This document shows, piece by piece, positions 35-29,847 of a stretch of DNA of 64,000 nt. Location: sequence record PQ471515.1. One strand, written 5' to 3'. Source of the stretch: Escherichia phage Turkey3. The notes under the pieces are model-generated. The model did not search any database. It saw only the letters and a program-made list of their open reading frames with translations, and had not been told where the DNA came from. The first letter of the stretch is position 1. Every line of letters begins with the position of its first letter. The translations under genes and the position numbers were made by a program.

Positions 35-478
35 TTGGAAGTAAAAGCTGGTTTTGCAGGTCAGTACAATGATAAAATCAAAGAAGAAGTTAAGGGAAGT
101 GAAGATGCTTTCATTGAGGTTTGTGCAACAGTTGGTTCAAATCCAATTTCAGTATCACCTTTAATGCGAAATGAAAATTCAGAATTTGATTCCAGTTTTG
201 AAGGTTATTTGTGGTATAATTATGGTGATGATTATTTTATATATCAGAATTCCAAAACGGATTACAGTGAAGAAGGTATAAAATTCATTGATCCTTACAA
301 TGAAGCAGAAGTATTTCAGACATCCCTAATATACAATACAAATCAAATGAAGTATCTTATGTTGTTTAGTACAATGCATTTGAATCCATTGAAAGATAAT
401 TTAAAATTTTTCATTCGTTTAGAATTAGTTGATATTGCTTATGATCTTTTAATGCAAGGATATAGTTATGAAGTATAA
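35..478 (+). CDS. FQ-S array paralog (hypothetical protein)
   Basis: 147-aa ORF; motif NEAEVFQTSLIYN; C-terminus LMQGYSYEV identical to next gene. Confidence 0.6.
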   Translation: MEVKAGFAGQYNDKIKEEVKGSEDAFIEVCATVGSNPISVSPLMRNENSEFDSSFEGYLWYNYGDDYFIYQNSKTDYSEEGIKFIDPYNEAEVFQTSLIYNTNQMKYLMLFSTMHLNPLKDNLKFFIRLELVDIAYDLLMQGYSYEV

Positions 479-495
479 AATGCTGTATACAAAAG
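451..495 (+). repeat. gene-junction repeat copy 1 (AATGCAAGGATATAGTTATGAAGTATAAAATGCT...)
   Basis: near-identical sequence recurs at 1035-1078 and 1379-1409, spanning stop/start junctions of adjacent paralogs. Confidence 0.7.
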
Positions 496-554
496 ATATG
501 ATTTATGTTGAATTAGAAGTCAATGACGATGTATCCATCAATAGGTAATAATAT

Positions 555-1061
555 ATGAATGAGATAGAATTATTAGCACACAAGATTAGTACAGTAATGC
601 TTATGCTCAAGAATAATCATTCTATGCATAAGTACATTTTTATAGGTGATTTACGCATAGAAGATAGATATGATAAATTATCGTTTATGTTTAAAGATGA
701 AAGTAATGCAAAAGTTTGTTTTGCAGCATTTACCCAAGGCAATCCAGAACAAGCATCTCCTGTTATATACGAAAATAGTGAAGGGTATTTGTGGGTCAAC
801 ACAAACGATTATTTCTTTTATGTTTTGAAACAAGATGATGAAGTAGAAGCACGAATTGATTTAATTGATATTAGTTCAGATTGTAGTGCTGAATTATTTC
901 AGAAATCGTTATTATACAGTCCTCGTCAAATACATTATCTAAAGTTATTCAGTTCATTGTACGCGAATCCTTTAATTAAGGGTTTTAAATTTTATATCAA
1001 AATTCCGCACCTTTCAAACGTTTATGATATGTTAATGCAAGGATATAGTTATGAAGTATAA
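555..1061 (+). CDS. FQ-S array paralog
   Basis: 168-aa ORF; motif SAELFQKSLLYS; same C-terminal LMQGYSYEV as 35-478. Confidence 0.6.
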   Translation: MNEIELLAHKISTVMLMLKNNHSMHKYIFIGDLRIEDRYDKLSFMFKDESNAKVCFAAFTQGNPEQASPVIYENSEGYLWVNTNDYFFYVLKQDDEVEARIDLIDISSDCSAELFQKSLLYSPRQIHYLKLFSSLYANPLIKGFKFYIKIPHLSNVYDMLMQGYSYEV

Positions 1062-1078
1062 AATGCTTTATACATTAA
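1035..1078 (+). repeat. gene-junction repeat copy 2
   Basis: matches 451-495 and 1379-1409. Confidence 0.7.
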
Positions 1079-1362
1079 CATTAATATATGTAGAATTAGA
1101 ATCCGATTCAGATGCATGGAATTTGGTTAAAGAGGTCGATACCAATCAATGGTACATGGCAAATTTAGACGCACAGGTTGTTACGGATTATTTTATAGAT
1201 TTTAATACATTATCTGAAGAAGAATTTTTCCAAATGCAATTGGTGGTTGACATGTACGGACATGACATGGTAACATTAAGAAATATACAGAAAGTAGTTA
1301 ATGAATTCCAAAGCAAGAAAGATTATGAGGTAGGAGCGTATTATGACATCGACGTACAGTGA
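1051..1362 (+). CDS. FQ-S array paralog (short form)
   Basis: 103 aa; MKYKMLYTL...SEEEFFQMQLVV; tandem duplicate of 1359-1709. Confidence 0.6.
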   Translation: MKYKMLYTLTLIYVELESDSDAWNLVKEVDTNQWYMANLDAQVVTDYFIDFNTLSEEEFFQMQLVVDMYGHDMVTLRNIQKVVNEFQSKKDYEVGAYYDIDVQ

Positions 1363-1709
1363 AAGCAATGAGTACAATAGTTATGAAGTATAAAATGCTT
1401 TATACATTATCAGGGATATATGTAGAATTAGAACCCGATTATCCAGATGGATGGAATTTTATTAAACGCTCCGAAAGAAATACATGGCACATGGCACATT
1501 TGGATAATGACGTAATATTAGACAATTTTGTGGATTTTAATACATTATCAGAAGAAGAATTCTTCCAAATGCAATGTGTGCTTGACACAAAAGGATTTGA
1601 TGTGCTATTATTAAAGAATATACAAAAAGCTGTTAACGAATTAATATCCAATGACGAGTTAGGCAAAGTGAGGCTGTTCCATGATCTCGAAGTACCGTAC
1701 CAGCAATGA
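1359..1709 (+). CDS. FQ-S array paralog (short form)
   Basis: 116 aa; ...MKYKMLYTL...SEEEFFQMQCVL; tandem duplicate of 1051-1362. Confidence 0.6.
   Translation: MKAMSTIVMKYKMLYTLSGIYVELEPDYPDGWNFIKRSERNTWHMAHLDNDVILDNFVDFNTLSEEEFFQMQCVLDTKGFDVLLLKNIQKAVNELISNDELGKVRLFHDLEVPYQQ
1379..1409 (+). repeat. gene-junction repeat copy 3
   Basis: AGTTATGAAGTATAAAATGCTTTATACATTA matches copies 1 and 2. Confidence 0.7.
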
Positions 1710-2250
1710 AATTCAGTACACCTACGCTAATGCAATCCTAATGGGACAAAAGTTAGCTTGTATTGTTGCAGCCTTATATAATGTACAGAAAGCAGCACAT
1801 AATAAAAAACCATATACAAGAATCATTAACGCATTCATGGGGTTTAAACCATCTGATTTTGATTCACATATTGCGTGCACAAGTTATTTTGACAAACGAT
1901 TCAATACACCTGATACCCAAAATGCCCGTAGTGTTATTAGTCTTTTACAGTTTAATCCAACACCAGTTATATCAAAGAATGATTTGGATTACACATGGTA
2001 CAATTCAAATCAAGATTCATTTTATTCTAATGATCAATCGATTGAATATAATAAAATTAAATCAGAGGAAGCATTTTTTCAGGAATCATTATTTACACAT
2101 GAACGTTCTTTGTTTTATAGTGTTATGTTGAGTACAGTATACAATAGTCCATTACACAAGAATAACAAAATTAATTTCAGTTTTTGTGCTTATGCGATTG
2201 ATGGTGTTTATGAGTGCTTAATGGAGGTATTGAGTTATGAAGCTGAATAA
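1681..2250 (+). CDS. FQ-S array paralog
   Basis: 189 aa; motif SEEAFFQESLFT; 29-nt overlap with upstream gene so true start may be downstream. Confidence 0.5.
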   Translation: MISKYRTSNEIQYTYANAILMGQKLACIVAALYNVQKAAHNKKPYTRIINAFMGFKPSDFDSHIACTSYFDKRFNTPDTQNARSVISLLQFNPTPVISKNDLDYTWYNSNQDSFYSNDQSIEYNKIKSEEAFFQESLFTHERSLFYSVMLSTVYNSPLHKNNKINFSFCAYAIDGVYECLMEVLSYEAE

Positions 2251-28160: not shown

Positions 28161-28193
28161 GTTCACATCTTTTTTTGATAAATGGAGATATAG

Positions 28194-28580
28194 ATGAATA
28201 CAAGTTCTGTTCTAAAAGCGATTGGTGGTGTACTTCTGATTGAAGTCCAGGGTGAACCTAAGCTATGTTGCTTAGAAGACATGAAGAATACTAAACACTT
28301 CAGTACTGGACAGATTTTCAATGCTATTCGTGTTCTTAACGACAAATCAGTACAAGACTATGGAAAGGTATGGCCTTCGTATGTAAATCCTGAAGGTGAA
28401 ATTAGTGCTGATTGGAAAACAATTGAAGCAGTACGTGTGAGTTGTGAGAGCGATTGGGATTTCATCGTTGAAGTATGTGACCAACTGCAAGAAGATGTGC
28501 CAGAGATTGTAGAACGTAAAGAAGTTCTTGCACAACTTGATAAATTCCGTCACGGTACTCTACCGTATGACGTAATCTAA
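28194..28580 (+). CDS. hypothetical protein
   Basis: 128-aa ORF, GGAG RBS. Confidence 0.5.
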   Translation: MNTSSVLKAIGGVLLIEVQGEPKLCCLEDMKNTKHFSTGQIFNAIRVLNDKSVQDYGKVWPSYVNPEGEISADWKTIEAVRVSCESDWDFIVEVCDQLQEDVPEIVERKEVLAQLDKFRHGTLPYDVI

Positions 28581-28631
28581 TCTGATTTATTAAAAACTAT
28601 CTAACTAACATTATATAAAAAGGAATTTAAA

Positions 28632-28937
28632 ATGGAAGACAACGGAATGAAATTTGATATGTTTGAAGGTGTACCAGAGTTCGATTTCAATAAACTTGAA
28701 AATGGTGAAGAATCAGAACTAGTAAGTGTTACACTAAAATCAGATACCAAAAAGAAATATTCCCCATCAGTTCGTTCACGTTCTCAAGAAGAATATGAAA
28801 CCTTCATTGAGAGTATTCATTACGAAACGTTCCATCATGCAGATGGTACTCCGTATGAAGTTCGTGTTACAGTACTGAAGCCTGAAGTAAATCAAATGGA
28901 AAATCTACGTCCTGTTTACTGCTGGGCAAGCCACTAA
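28632..28937 (+). CDS. hypothetical protein
   Basis: 101-aa ORF, AAAGGAA RBS. Confidence 0.5.
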   Translation: MEDNGMKFDMFEGVPEFDFNKLENGEESELVSVTLKSDTKKKYSPSVRSRSQEEYETFIESIHYETFHHADGTPYEVRVTVLKPEVNQMENLRPVYCWASH

Positions 28938-28946
28938 TAAACCAAA

Positions 28947-28978
28947 GGACGGGATATAATATCTCGTCCTTTTTTTTG
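28947..28978 (+). terminator. rho-independent terminator
   Basis: GGACGGGATAT-AAT-ATCTCGTCC hairpin followed by T8. Confidence 0.6.
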
Positions 28979-28989
28979 TCTGGAGATAT

Positions 28990-29847
28990 ATGAAACTTTA
29001 TCTAATTGTTGACTACAGTAAGGGTTATTATGACTACACAGAAGATTCTGAAGGGTATTGCTCGTCTACTAATGTAAATGTACGCAGCAGTAGTACACAT
29101 GAGCATGAATCTATTACAAATCTAAAAGATTTTATTGCATACCGAGCATTTGAAAAGAATTTCTGTCGTAGTAGATATTCGAAGTTTGAGTACCCGTTGA
29201 TTGATGTTCCTGATGAATTGATGTTCCAGTTAATGCTCACTGGAGTACAAGATTATGATTACATCGCGTACAATCACATTACTAAGAAAATTTATATCGG
29301 TACGTCAACACATGACATTTCTATGTATGCATCATGCCCTGATGATCGAATGAAGGATAGAAATTCACGAAATTCATACAGTAGTGGTTCAGTTGGTTTA
29401 AATGATGCATTAAATAAAAATTTATTCTTTGAGTACGAGTTTGATAATCATCGAGGGAAAAAAGACCGAGAAGATTATTGTACTGAAATTGATAGTTCAA
29501 ATGGATATGAAGAAGTGAAAGAAGCGATAATGCCATATATCCTTGACAAGTACTACAAAGATTTTCAGTACTGTAGTAATTTTCTAATCCGAAATTCTAT
29601 CATAATCGGTCGTCAAAGTACTGCATTCTCTAAGTACTACAATGATTCCCCTGTTGCTGAAAATGAAAACTGTAATGTTCTCTCAATCCCACGTGAAGAT
29701 ATGGTATTCATGTTCACATCTTTCATTGAAGATGATGAGTTGTATGTAAAAAACAAGCACAGGTTCATGCCAAGTAAGATTGAGGTTATGAGAAGCTTAA
29801 GTGCAGATATCTTAACGAATTTCACTGAAAAAACAGAATACAACTGA
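28990..29847 (+). CDS. hypothetical protein (285 aa), divergent FQ motif
   Basis: PDELMFQLMLTGVQD near N-terminal third. Confidence 0.5.
   Translation: MKLYLIVDYSKGYYDYTEDSEGYCSSTNVNVRSSSTHEHESITNLKDFIAYRAFEKNFCRSRYSKFEYPLIDVPDELMFQLMLTGVQDYDYIAYNHITKKIYIGTSTHDISMYASCPDDRMKDRNSRNSYSSGSVGLNDALNKNLFFEYEFDNHRGKKDREDYCTEIDSSNGYEEVKEAIMPYILDKYYKDFQYCSNFLIRNSIIIGRQSTAFSKYYNDSPVAENENCNVLSIPREDMVFMFTSFIEDDELYVKNKHRFMPSKIEVMRSLSADILTNFTEKTEYN

Follow-up and report, generated by a model that had tools for sequence, protein, structure and literature searches.

In phage CBB, RpoD promoters were predicted to be concentrated in a stretch of short hypothetical ORFs, and the authors suspected these ORFs of acting early in host takeover (PMC5259590). 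RNA-seq of PA5oct has revealed that the small uncharacterised genes of the long direct terminal repeat (DTR) region are early and dependent on the host RNA polymerase (PMC7318152). In fEgEco12, restriction digests have confirmed the DTR ends (PMC13070987), and the virion proteome of phAPEC6 comprises 62 proteins, none of them between gp347 and gp549 (PMC7247149). The window analysed here is a stretch of 64,000 nt from Escherichia phage Turkey3 (PQ471515.1), an Asteriusvirus of the 121Q/PBECO4 type of E. coli jumbo phages, and it carries across ~30 kb a head-to-tail tandem run of paralogues of a small acidic protein (the FQ family), strongly diverged and estimated from sequence profiles at about 47.

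An all-against-all phmmer comparison separated two clusters of 15 and 12 members, and these disjoint seed sets were each expanded by iterative HMM search. Both searches converged, on 41 and 40 members with 40 common to both, and no reversed-sequence decoy was found below E = 1e-3. Because two disjoint seed sets converge without decoy matches, the resemblance is attributed to homology and not to composition, and at the level of sequence profiles all members are shown to derive from a single ancestor. In the 41-sequence alignment F and Q are the sole invariant residues, and the members are 11-40% identical to the reference member. The pattern FQx[SN][TLC] is present in 37 of the 63 + strand ORFs that begin before 30 kb and in 0 of the 69 after it (residue-shuffled versions of the same ORFs: mean 0.43, maximum 3), and the looser pattern [ED]x1-3FQxx[TLCVIM] in 45/63 versus 3/69. 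The large paralogous array proposed by a sequence-only reading of this DNA is thus real, and the C-terminal position which that reading gave to the motif agrees with its location at 49-83% of the protein length. Its estimate of 45-50 members is also matched, with 41 members assigned firmly by HMM, all on the + strand and including an outlier at 37375-38064, about 6 probable ones (3700, 11869, 19078, 21215, 22813 and 25381) and 2 judged possible from motif and profile comparison (20790 and 28990). The proteins are about 105-215 aa long, with a median net charge of -9 and a median pI of 4.8, only moderately more acidic than the other window genes (5.5), and no real transmembrane segment was predicted in family members. 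The members are the following, with the motif in brackets and the E value of the HMM:

2-478, +, FQ member, 5' end cut by the window edge (EAEVFQTSLIY), E = 6e-18
555-1061, +, FQ long form (SAELFQKSLLY), E = 1e-21, in the alignment
1051-1362, +, FQ short form (SEEEFFQMQLV), E = 2e-12, in the alignments
1359-1709, +, FQ short form (SEEEFFQMQCV), E = 3e-14
1681-2250, +, FQ long form (SEEAFFQESLF), E = 1e-19
2557-3054, +, FQ long form (TEEWWFQQNLV), E = 4e-19
3092-3703, +, FQ long form (SAEDYFQYSTVY), E = 3e-15
3700-4308, +, probable diverged member (IESFFFQLSLVQ), motif present, E = 0.4, second-ranked non-member in hhalign, not significant
4530-5039, +, FQ long form (DEAAYFQQSLI), E = 1.5e-19 over residues 45-210 of a long ORF that is open from 4398, likely start 4530
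5036-5380, +, FQ short form (DEAARFQYETA), E = 4e-9
5391-5945, +, FQ long form (SEEMLFQYKTV), E = 5e-16
6702-7079, +, FQ short form (DAALFQESLVF), E = 1.5e-13
7237-7608, +, FQ short form (SEEEFFQESTVW), E = 2e-14, phAPEC6 orthologue 100% identical
7608-7964, +, FQ short form (AAELFQESLVF), E = 2e-18, target of structure model 2
7961-8326, +, FQ short form (DVELFQASLVF), E = 1e-13
8328-8672, +, FQ short form (EAEIFQESLIF), E = 6e-19
8856-9326, +, FQ long form (SEEFYFQQNTIY), E = 6e-22
9323-9763, +, FQ long form (TEEYYFQQSLIF), E = 6e-24
9766-10254, +, FQ long form (SEEYYFQNSTVY), E = 2e-28, target of structure model 1
10232-10675, +, FQ long form (SEEYYFQNSTLY), E = 1e-26
10672-10986, +, FQ short form (HETFLFQESLIW), E = 1e-9
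10986-11429, +, FQ long form (SEDAYFQYSTIY), E = 4e-18
11426-11872, +, FQ long form (TEEGYFQGSTVY), E = 2e-26
11869-12405, +, probable diverged member (FEEQCFQLSCTD), E = 0.0016, top-ranked non-member in hhalign
12763-13317, +, FQ long form (TEENIFQNSLMW), E = 2e-14
13916-14275, +, FQ short form (QEDELFQESLVW), E = 3e-14
14265-14603, +, FQ short form (DTGELFQESLVL), E = 5e-13
14611-15144, +, FQ long form (NEENYFQQSLLN), E = 8e-26
15204-15686, +, FQ long form (SEEEFFQYSTLY), E = 3e-26
15683-16165, +, FQ long form (TEEMYFQGSCIH), E = 6e-28, reaches Klebsiella phages by tblastn
16158-16520, +, FQ short form (SEEELFQESTVN), E = 2e-15
16504-16917, +, FQ member (TPDELFQYSLVL), E = 3e-17
16917-17399, +, FQ long form (SEESYFQNSLIY), E = 6e-22
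17922-18479, +, FQ long form (LESVMFQHMLIH), E = 8e-20, reciprocal best hit with a Muenster member
18472-18990, +, FQ long form (TDEVQFQLSTIC), E = 4e-20
19078-19641, +, probable member, F-N replacing F-Q (YDVLLFNANLIH), similar by phmmer to 19641-20225, family HMM not significant
19641-20225, +, FQ long form (REAYIFQRSVLD), E = 2e-10
20212-20790, +, FQ long form (VDEELFQMSTVI), E = 5e-14
20790-21218, +, possible diverged member (IDSLALQYGVLY), motif-like L-Q, fourth-ranked in hhalign, not significant
21215-21721, +, probable diverged member (TEEVEFQFNTVS), E = 0.19, vB_Ec-M-J orthologue E = 0.009
21708-22289, +, FQ long form (GEEQYFQLSTIH), E = 4e-18
22301-22852, +, FQ long form (SEEQHFQLSTLH), E = 1e-12
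22813-23451, +, probable diverged member with M-Q (VEAALMQLSTSE), E = 0.17, motif-like only
23441-24025, +, FQ long form (MEERLFQESCVS), E = 7e-13
24448-24966, +, FQ long form (TEELIFQYSLIL), E = 4e-12, reciprocal best hit 29284-29835 of L003
25381-25794, +, probable diverged member (IDSIEFFQYECLG), E = 0.14, motif present
25781-26281, +, FQ long form (DAGELFQLSTVN), E = 1e-15, last firm member in the contiguous array
28990-29847, +, possible distant member of 285 aa with a long C-terminal extension, motif only (PDELMFQLMLTG, ~residue 75), hhalign not significant; motif also in a syntenic 276-aa gene of contig L002
37375-38064, +, FQ outlier beyond the array (SEEEHFQLMMMR), 229 aa, E = 4e-15 with either seed set, as the sequence-only reading had supposed; the RnlA RNA ligase gene lies just downstream

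The genes are co-directional and tightly packed with ATGA overlaps, as noted before: 48 of the 62 gene junctions overlap or have gaps <=15 nt, and 4-bp overlaps are found at 12 of the 62 (11 ATGA, 1 TTGA). The array had been delimited at 35-29847, limits which have to be moved at both ends. No firm member of the contiguous array lies beyond 26281, and 26.3-29.8 kb is a different, conserved gene block. On the left the array is truncated by the window edge and the first gene has an open frame from nt 2 onwards; its vB_Ec-M-J orthologue is 28 aa longer, and a near-identical phage carries four further family members upstream. Genes foreign to the family are embedded in the array:

12383-12601 and 12579-12773, +, two ~70-aa non-FQ genes of a different paralog family, pairing together in phmmer
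24035-24448, +, ADP-ribosyltransferase (ART)-like gene, 57% identity to gp123 of Klebsiella phage Muenster

By inspection, the two ~70-aa genes have a motif in common with a 28-copy upstream array of vB_Ec-M-J. Muenster gp123 was annotated by its depositors as "putative ADP-ribosyl transferase" (HHpred 4GV2_A), the ART-like gene has no Pfam match, and the member at 24448-24966 is the positional orthologue of the Muenster gene directly after the Muenster ART-like gene. Downstream of the array lie genes for Dam, RNA ligase, PseT, ClpP, Sir2, Nudix and PhoH; together with the ART-like gene, these neighbours are of a kind typical of takeover and counter-defence.

Breaks in the array had been placed at about 3.07, 15.1, 19.0 and 28.1 kb, and each of them corresponds to a consensus promoter site:

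3042-3101, +, terminator hairpin 3042-3063, then sigma-70-like promoter 3073-3101 (TTGACA, 17-nt spacer, TG, TACAAT), 11/12 match plus extended -10, intergenic gap 3054-3092
15141-15170, +, perfect sigma-70 consensus promoter (TTGACA, 18-nt spacer, TG, TATAAT), 12/12 with extended -10, gap before 15204
18989-19050, +, terminator hairpin 18989-19008, then sigma-70-like promoter 19022-19050 (TTTACA, 17-nt spacer, TG, TATAAT), 11/12 match plus extended -10, gap 18990-19078
28133-28160, +, sigma-70-like promoter downstream of the array (TGGACA, 16-nt spacer, TATAAT), 11/12, gap 28122-28194

Promoter-like sites in total show no excess over shuffled sequence; the four best matches (11-12 of 12, all but one with an extended -10) sit in rare intergenic gaps, and two of the four directly follow a terminator hairpin (3.07 and 19.0 kb). 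The array begins a few kb inside the left DTR, which spans 1-21525 in vB_Ec-M-J, and reads inward, away from it. PA5oct is a distant relative, and the early small genes of its DTR region parallel this terminal setting. Promoter consensus and these other phages suggest that the array would be transcribed early.

AF2 models were obtained for a long form (9766-10254; pLDDT 86, pTM 0.83) and a short form (7608-7964; pLDDT 83, pTM 0.80) from shallow alignments of 41 and 22 sequences, for the most part paralogues. Both run through the same succession of elements (beta-meander, short helix, motif helix, long helix, edge strand), with an extra N-terminal helix predicted in long forms, so that a single alpha+beta fold is predicted for the long and the short member modelled. 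The N-termini, described earlier as widely varying, do not appear unrelated, since the profile aligns most members nearly full length and the two models give one fold. The sequence-only reading could match the signature to no family, which was borne out: Pfam, NCBIfam and PADLOC gave no significant match for the family, the profile search of PDB sequences no E-value below 0.099, the PHROGs groups are labelled "unknown", and the BFVD structure search returned nothing but uncharacterised phage proteins (121Q, RaK2, GAP32, Serratia BF and Yersinia fHe-Yen9). Across these six resources, no relative with a known structure or function was detected for the family.

The motif helix starts directly after the conserved Ser and lies in the region of highest pLDDT in model 1 (95-97). 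The segment [ST]-E-E-x-[YF]-F-Q-x-S-[TL]-[VIL]-[YFW] most likely serves the predicted fold as a structural keystone in the form of a capped helix: the Ser/Thr and the following acidic residues would cap a short helix, the invariant Phe would be buried and the Gln amide would bond across the next turn, a role of the F-Q pair read only from secondary structure and pLDDT. Orthologue identity is 0.76-0.81 in the vicinity of the motif and on its C-terminal side versus 0.65-0.75 in the N-terminal sheet region, a modest difference, and a lost Q is often substituted by N. The invariance of the F-Q dipeptide despite a family identity of ~15% would be explained equally well by a shared binding site. The resemblance to a TEV-type protease site had already been considered probably coincidental, and indeed just 2 of the 41 members fit E..Y.Q[GS], and the motif is predicted in a helix (pLDDT ~97) and not in an exposed linker. 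From the models, we do not read the motif as a catalytic or cleavage site.

HMM search of other phage genomes, as had been recommended, has revealed the family in Klebsiella, Cronobacter and Serratia jumbo phages, where the F-Q pair is kept and the copies lie at the corresponding syntenic position, upstream of a conserved gene block that ends with Dam. Only RaK2-like jumbo phages carry the family, with ~47 copies in this phage, at least 29 in a Klebsiella phage and ~8 each in Cronobacter phage GAP32 and Serratia BF. Since phAPEC6 has positional orthologues of 37 of the 41 members and the family is found in three other genera, the copies are for the most part old, and their earlier description as recent duplicates is largely wrong. 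Diversifying selection, also suggested before, found no support in the gene-wide dN/dS against phAPEC6 (median 0.23, maximum 0.45, none >1 among the members compared). The non-synonymous rate is ~2x that of downstream genes in the same comparison, and by this gene-wide measure the FQ genes are fast-evolving yet under purifying selection. The phAPEC6 orthologues of the array are gp404c-gp466c, within the range missing from the virion proteome (PMC7247149), and the family is therefore considered non-structural.

The context favours a putative host-interaction role early in infection, and the part in host range, anti-defence or immunity suggested by the sequence-only reading is a candidate function. 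We tentatively propose, at slightly below even probability, an early, non-structural and lineage-specific host-interaction multigene family whose paralogues are diversified binders of host factors. One small acidic soluble protein has been duplicated in tandem repeatedly near the terminus of RaK2-like genomes, in what is probably their early region; soon after the DNA has entered the cell, unmodified host RNA polymerase would transcribe the array from the consensus sigma-70 promoters, and every operon would be translated as a tightly coupled unit. The FQ products would remain cytoplasmic instead of being packaged into virions, and the fast-diverging remainder of the protein would give each paralogue its own binding specificity. 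Such a panel of binders may neutralise or redirect various host factors, defence proteins included, during takeover, although the gene-wide dN/dS shows no sign of an arms race. If the paralogues are indeed such binders, the FQ array would be comparable in this respect to the multigene families at the genome ends of large DNA viruses of eukaryotes.

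The FQ family, a group of small tandem paralogues that carry an E-E-x-[F/Y]-F-Q-type motif, was delimited by motif counts and profile searches. The pattern FQx[SN][TLC] was found in 37 of the 63 + strand ORFs starting before 30 kb and in none of the 69 ORFs beyond 30 kb, and residue shuffles of the same ORFs gave a mean of 0.43 matches, with a maximum of 3. An all-against-all phmmer comparison of the window ORFs grouped 15 genes in one cluster and 12 in another, with no link between the two. HMMs built iteratively on each of them recovered 41 and 40 genes, 40 of them common to both, at a membership cut-off of E < 1e-3, and none of the reversed-sequence decoys fell below E = 1e-3 with these HMMs. 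Judged by these sequence comparisons, the motif signal reflects homology and not composition, and the array of paralogues with this signature described in the sequence-only reading is real. F and Q are the sole invariant positions across the 41-sequence alignment, in which the identity of the members to the reference member ranges from 11 to 40%.

Forty of the 41 firm members are encoded on the + strand at 2-26281, with the last firm contiguous member ending at 26281, and the outlier 37375-38064 falls inside the set on which the iterative HMMs converged. Additional genes with the motif or a near-motif (starting at 3700, 11869, 21215, 22813, 25381, 20790 and 28990) were individually non-significant. 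When array non-members were compared as single sequences with the family alignment by hhalign, the motif-bearing candidates ranked at the top, none of them significantly, and for this reason the borderline genes have been counted only as probable or possible members. In the gene 19078-19641, F-N replaces F-Q, and this gene joins the family through its phmmer similarity to the firm member 19641-20225. The firm members and the probable genes give a family total of about 47, within the 45-50 initially estimated. The extent first proposed for the array, 35-29847 plus the outlier at 37375-38064, was right about the outlier, but the firm members stop at 26281 and the array continues leftward: its first gene is truncated by the window edge, and the near-identical phage vB_Ec-M-J has four further FQ members upstream of the region that matches the window. 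Some longest-ORF calls were probably too long at the 5' end (4398-4529, 5319-5390, 8256-8327, 14554-14610 and 18406-18471), overlapping the preceding gene; shorter starts were indicated by the HMM matches and, where checked, by the annotated starts in related phages.

The FQ proteins occur as short forms of 103-138 aa and long forms of 146-229 aa, and one member of each was modelled with AlphaFold2 on paralogue alignments. The model of the long form 9766-10254 (pLDDT 86.4, pTM 0.83) opens with a helix at the N-terminus, continues with seven short strands, then three helices and a strand, and ends in a further helix. That of the short form 7608-7964 (pLDDT 83.1, pTM 0.80) starts with five strands, which are followed by a short helix, then the motif helix and a long helix, and closes with a strand. 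The order of the elements is the same in both models, with the N-terminal helix and the last helix added in the long form, and each model is one compact domain. In the long model the helix with E-E-Y-Y-F-Q-N starts directly after a conserved Ser, with block-mean pLDDT of 95-97; for the motif helix the block mean is about 97 in the long form and about 93 in the short form. From secondary structure and model confidence, we infer that [ST]-E-E would form a helix N-cap with acidic N-terminal residues, that the F of F-Q would be a core residue, and that Q-x-S-[TL] may be a turn leading into the next hydrophobic stretch. The aromatic-L-D patch noted earlier is present as [FY]-[FY]-[LIM]-D, an edge strand near the C-terminus of the long forms. 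The FQ proteins have a median pI of 4.8 and a median net charge of -9, versus 5.5 and -4 for the other window genes, they lack a cysteine or histidine pattern, and no transmembrane segments were predicted in them except one in a spurious N-terminal ORF extension.

Scans of ten FQ representatives against Pfam, NCBIfam and PADLOC gave no significant match, and the ten tested members fell into a dozen or more PHROGs groups of "unknown function". When the family profile was run on all PDB sequences, nothing came out below E = 0.099, with the KCTD1 BTB domain as the best match. These results bear out the original remark that the signature could not be matched to a known family. The weak matches of the short form were all domains of a generic sheet-plus-helix type (RNA polymerase beta lobe, ATP-grasp subdomains, LolA, polo boxes, MHC-like platforms and MAM33/p32). 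The acidic-protein fold of MAM33/p32 (gC1qR) was considered and rejected, with no significant structural superposition and no sequence-profile match in Pfam or in the PDB profile search. A beta-clamp-binding motif was also considered for Q-x-S-L-[VI]-[FYW] and rejected. The consensus of such motifs, QL[SD]LF or QLxLxL, has Leu at position 2 and lies in a disordered tail or loop, whereas in the FQ family position 2 varies and is polar in most cases, position 4 is T instead of L in many members, and the segment is ordered in both models.

When 1.84 billion representative proteins were searched exhaustively with HMMER, only 143 clusters reached E <= 1e-3, one of them spurious. This strong-looking match, P0041 (773 aa, 13 matched stretches), is a low-complexity tandem repeat. 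Matches that carry a name are called "hypothetical protein" and come from contigs of about 350 kb with an E. coli or Escherichia phage label, and the sources of the 143 clusters, where checked or shown, were jumbo-phage-sized or metagenomic contigs. The BFVD structure search returned only uncharacterised proteins of 121Q, RaK2, GAP32, Serratia BF, Yersinia fHe-Yen9-03/04 and SP27. With the family HMM, at least 29 members were recovered in the syntenic region of Klebsiella phage Muenster, where the motif is even cleaner (T-E-E-x-x-F-Q-Y-S-T-L-Y), and about eight in each of the syntenic regions of Cronobacter GAP32 and Serratia BF, compared with about 47 in Asteriusvirus. One-to-one orthologues between Asteriusvirus and Muenster are few, with 13 reciprocal best hits, most of them weak; one orthologue common to both is the gene located right after a conserved ADP-ribosyltransferase (ART)-like gene. 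A 54-kb metagenomic contig (L002, Logan ERR12379741) displays the same layout of an array followed by Dam, with the dipeptide often changed to LQ, FN or FY. The contig comes from a distant RaK2-like phage; its Dam is at most 56% identical to any phage record, and a gene with a Pfam Gad2 (anti-Gabija) domain lies downstream of Dam.

F-Q is kept in four phage genera, and the presence of the family across genera indicates that it is old; expansion on a very large scale characterises the Asteriusvirus and Alcyoneusvirus branches. Common ancestry, a tandem co-directional layout and restriction to a lineage were all found, and the FQ proteins are a viral lineage-specific multigene family. That they constitute one old family, with one predicted fold that has no match among solved structures and that has been tandemly expanded, is secure.

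Other small paralogues are present in the same region. Inside the FQ array, the genes of about 70 aa at 12383-12601 and 12579-12773 are marked by a motif, G-[TS]-x-[YK]-Q-[ED], that is also found in a 28-copy tandem array at 3012-11075 of vB_Ec-M-J, just upstream of the window. By inspection of this motif, the two genes and the 28 copies would form one second paralog family; the median identity among the 28 copies is 34%. This family resembles the FQ family in being tandem and on the same strand, in adjoining the FQ array and in having the two similar-motif genes interspersed there, but its sequences are unrelated, its proteins are shorter and its copies resemble each other more closely. Six tandem genes of about 90-100 aa at 33359-35498 (starting at 33359, 33625, 33882, 34204, 34478 and 35208) make up a third family of small paralogues, recovered by iterative HMM with no match among the decoys.

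The window is 97-98% identical to Escherichia phages Ecwhy_1, EC.P1, vB_Ec-M-J and fEgEco12, and 84-87% identical to PBECO4 and 121Q; all matching records whose taxonomy was checked belong to Asteriusvirus, jumbo myoviruses of about 350 kb. The vB_Ec-M-J record begins at the physical left end, its direct terminal repeat spans 1-21525, and its window-matching region begins at about 30 kb, which places the array a few kb inward of the left terminal repeat. Restriction digests have confirmed the ends of fEgEco12 and a repeat of 20,993 bp (PMC13070987). Every gene of the array reads away from the left genome end. Two conserved features accompany the array:

Conserved non-FQ features within and after the array
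24035-24448: ART-like gene of 137 aa, embedded in the array, 57% identical to Muenster gp123
26324-31073: non-family block between the array and Dam, with genes of 157, 285, 97, 128, 101, 285 and 198 aa

Muenster gp123 was annotated as a putative ADP-ribosyltransferase by its depositors (HHpred); Pfam and PHROGs assign no function to 24035-24448, which is much more conserved across genera than the surrounding FQ genes. In the block 26324-31073, genes of similar size are found in the same order in the Klebsiella, Cronobacter and Serratia relatives and in the metagenomic contig, with no function assigned, and the conserved block ends at the Dam methyltransferase. Its two 285-aa genes (26955-27812 and 28990-29847) show no detectable paralogy to each other. 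Downstream of the array are genes for Dam, RNA ligase, PseT (RNA repair), ClpP, Sir2, Nudix and PhoH. The isolated FQ member 37375-38064 is immediately upstream of an RNA/DNA repair cluster at 38326-48913, in which an RnlA-type RNA ligase, the PseT kinase/phosphatase, a DNA ligase and a weak PTH2-like protein (45865-46284) are interleaved with small unknown genes. A ClpP homologue is clear at 50572-51267 (Pfam E = 1e-41), and another protein, at 54200-54808, is ClpP-like at a very weak level (E = 3e-4); no unfoldase partner for the phage ClpP is evident in the window, which also contains no tRNA genes.

The array genes are tightly packed. Of 62 gene junctions, 12 overlap by four bases, 6 by a single base and 17 by a longer stretch, and in 13 more the genes are at most 15 nt apart, which brings the overlapping or nearly abutting junctions to 48. 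The totals of promoter-like sites show no excess over shuffled sequence (120 versus 122.6, and 62 versus 63.7), but the strongest candidates, listed here, all lie in the few intergenic gaps:

Strong sigma-70-type promoter candidates in and downstream of the array
3073: sigma-70-like promoter, 11/12 match, directly after a terminator hairpin at 3042
15141: sigma-70 promoter in an intergenic gap, TTGACA, 18-nt spacer, TG and TATAAT, 12/12 consensus match
19022: sigma-70-like promoter, 11/12 match, directly after a terminator hairpin at 18989
28133: sigma-70-like promoter in an intergenic gap, 11/12 match

Gaps longer than 35 nt make up about 4-5% of the 30 kb, and of the nine + strand sites with a score of 11 or higher at least four lie in them, a placement with a chance probability near 1e-3 by a rough hand binomial approximation. 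These data agree with the few promoter/terminator breaks among tightly packed co-directional genes that had been noted, and the pattern fits what would be a few long early operons read by the unmodified host polymerase. Published work on relatives agrees with this. In phage CBB, the predicted RpoD-type promoters are concentrated where short hypothetical ORFs lie, which its authors suspected of being early takeover genes (PMC5259590), and RNA-seq of PA5oct has classed the small uncharacterised genes of the long terminal-repeat (DTR) region as early and host-polymerase-dependent (PMC7318152). The orthologues of the FQ genes in the relative phAPEC6 are gp404c-gp466c, and its published virion proteome (62 proteins) includes none between gp347 and gp549; the family is not virion-associated. 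With fair confidence, we infer that the FQ proteins are early, cytoplasmic and non-structural.

Comparison with phAPEC6 gave positional reciprocal best hits for 37 FQ genes, with a median amino-acid identity of 74%, dN of 0.159 and dN/dS of 0.23 (maximum 0.45). The 67 non-family genes beyond 30 kb have a median identity of 86%, dN of 0.079 and dN/dS of 0.13. The family has thus evolved about twice as fast at non-synonymous sites, yet it is clearly constrained. Diversifying selection, proposed earlier from the scale of the expansion, did not survive this dN/dS check: the gene-wide value never exceeded 1 in the phAPEC6 orthologues, and diversifying selection at the gene-wide level is rejected. 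Within the protein, orthologues are less alike in the N-terminal sheet region (identity 0.65-0.75) than in the motif and the part that follows it (0.76-0.81). Gene by gene, identity to phAPEC6 ranges from 38% to 100%, and this mosaic divergence suggests a recent exchange of single alleles among co-circulating phages. The gene 7237-7608 is identical to phAPEC6 at the DNA level, other FQ genes a few kb from it have 38-60% protein identity, and 3092-3703 is 38% identical.

The ART-like gene inside the array, together with the kinds of takeover and defence-survival genes located downstream, led us to settle on a diversified panel of binders as the best explanation. From this context, the FQ paralogues could well be, as a tentative reading, diversified binders of host factors, defence proteins included, in which the FQ segment holds the fold. 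The main rival, with the others graded lesser, is an adaptor library in which the FQ segment and the C-terminal helices would be a docking module for one shared partner (for instance the phage ClpP, a host chaperone or protease, or RNA polymerase) and the variable part would recruit targets in the manner of F-box/BTB substrate receptors. We consider this unlikely, although F-Q is the sole invariant feature at about 15% identity and is retained in four genera, the conserved flanking acidic residues are unusual for purely buried positions, orthologues match somewhat better in the motif and the C-terminal part than in the N-terminal sheet, and the phage carries a ClpP gene and perhaps another, weakly ClpP-like one, for which the window shows no obvious partner. 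Against it, the motif lies in the best-ordered and probably packed part of the model, the models show a single compact domain instead of a module plus a variable domain, no partner has been identified, and the decay of the dipeptide to LQ, FN and FY in the metagenomic contig is easier to reconcile with a structural role. The more specific proposal that the FQ segment is a shared docking element through which about 47 substrate receptors would pass host or defence proteins to one effector, such as a phage ClpP-based protease, is improbable; if true, it would represent a programmable degradation or sequestration system in a tailed phage, comparable to the F-box or BTB families. It is also rather unlikely that the array serves superinfection exclusion or conflict with co-infecting phages or mobile elements and not host defence. 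The context of early expression, absence from the virion and strain variability would be the same as for the binder panel, and the range of identities to phAPEC6 indicates frequent allele exchange among co-circulating phages, but the FQ proteins are soluble and cytoplasmic, many exclusion proteins being membrane-bound, and no homology to known exclusion proteins was found.

Tandem arrays in 121Q and phage G have been noted by Hua et al. 2017, who proposed duplication as a route of genome growth, with a ratchet idea (PMC5646251). This proposal, and the climb in copy number from about 8 to about 47 between related genera, would accord with an array that is mostly a by-product of tandem duplication filling an enlarged capsid, with little present function. 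This filler reading is decidedly improbable given the purifying selection in all tested orthologue pairs (dN/dS <= 0.45), the intact and tightly coupled reading frames, the positional orthologues kept across strains and partly across genera, and the F-Q held invariant. Very unlikely, too, are internal head proteins or ejected proteins travelling with the DNA: in small size, acidity and number the FQ proteins resemble certain internal proteins of other phages, but their phAPEC6 orthologues are absent from the virion proteome and the consensus sigma-70 promoters point to early and not late expression. Cleavage of every member at E-E-x-Y-F-Q plus a small residue by a glutamine-specific (3C/TEV-like) protease is hardly credible. 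The FQ motif shares the E-x-x-Y/F-F-Q string with the TEV/NIa site ENLYFQ(G/S), and two members fit strictly (EEGYFQG and EEMYFQG), but it has neither the pattern nor the structural context of that site: E-x-x-Y-x-Q-(G/S) fits just 2 of the 41 members, 31 of the 41 have E, Y, Q, L or N next to the Q on its C-terminal side, and the segment is helical with very high pLDDT and not an exposed linker. Among the annotations consulted for stretches of related phages, ClpP and a prohead protease are the only proteases, and no glutamine-specific 3C/TEV-like protease is known in tailed phages or E. coli. The resemblance was already suspected to be coincidental, and the two fits and the confidently modelled helix agree with this.

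The binder panel would have parallels in other large viruses. Roles in immune evasion and host range have been demonstrated for the ASFV MGF360/505/110 families and for the Bcl-2-like and ankyrin host-range families of poxviruses. Like the FQ family, they are tandem diverged paralogues near a genome end, non-structural, with one fold, variable surfaces and a copy number that varies between relatives; they differ in their eukaryotic hosts, their unrelated folds and in that their roles have been demonstrated. The immediate-early or pre-early genes of T4 and T5 are small, have strong host-type promoters and include ADP-ribosyltransferases and inhibitors of host defences. They share with the FQ genes a small size, mostly unknown function and host-type promoters acting at the start of infection (predicted for FQ), but are mostly unrelated singletons and not one expanded family. 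In Bacillus phage G, about 35 Zn-ribbon genes constitute a lineage-specific expansion with no role assigned (Iyer et al. 2021, PMC7824862). This is also a very large expansion of one small domain in a single jumbo-phage lineage, but the recognisable Zn-ribbon fold suggests nucleic-acid binding, whereas the FQ family has no fold match.

No description of the FQ family, its motif, fold or distribution was found in the literature searched, in which tandem arrays of 121Q-type phages are mentioned only in single sentences; one of these mentions is probably about the adjacent family, with its 28 copies of about 70 aa. As a kind of system, lineage-specific early multigene families of large viruses are familiar; as a protein family, FQ is new and uncharacterised. 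About 30 kb, some 8% of a 350-kb coliphage genome, is given to this unnamed and unstudied family. Because it has one predicted fold, an invariant F-Q and a defined range over at least four RaK2-like genera, it can be treated as a single superfamily, which collapses dozens of "hypothetical proteins" per genome into one problem, and the lack of a significant PDB match makes its fold a good target for structure determination. Phages that carry the family are under development for therapy against E. coli and Klebsiella. The rise from about 8 to about 47 copies between genera is a natural experiment on the expansion of families in jumbo phages, and the setting of the array, adjacent to the terminal repeat, with host-type promoters and non-virion products, makes the FQ family a prime candidate for early takeover or counter-defence functions.
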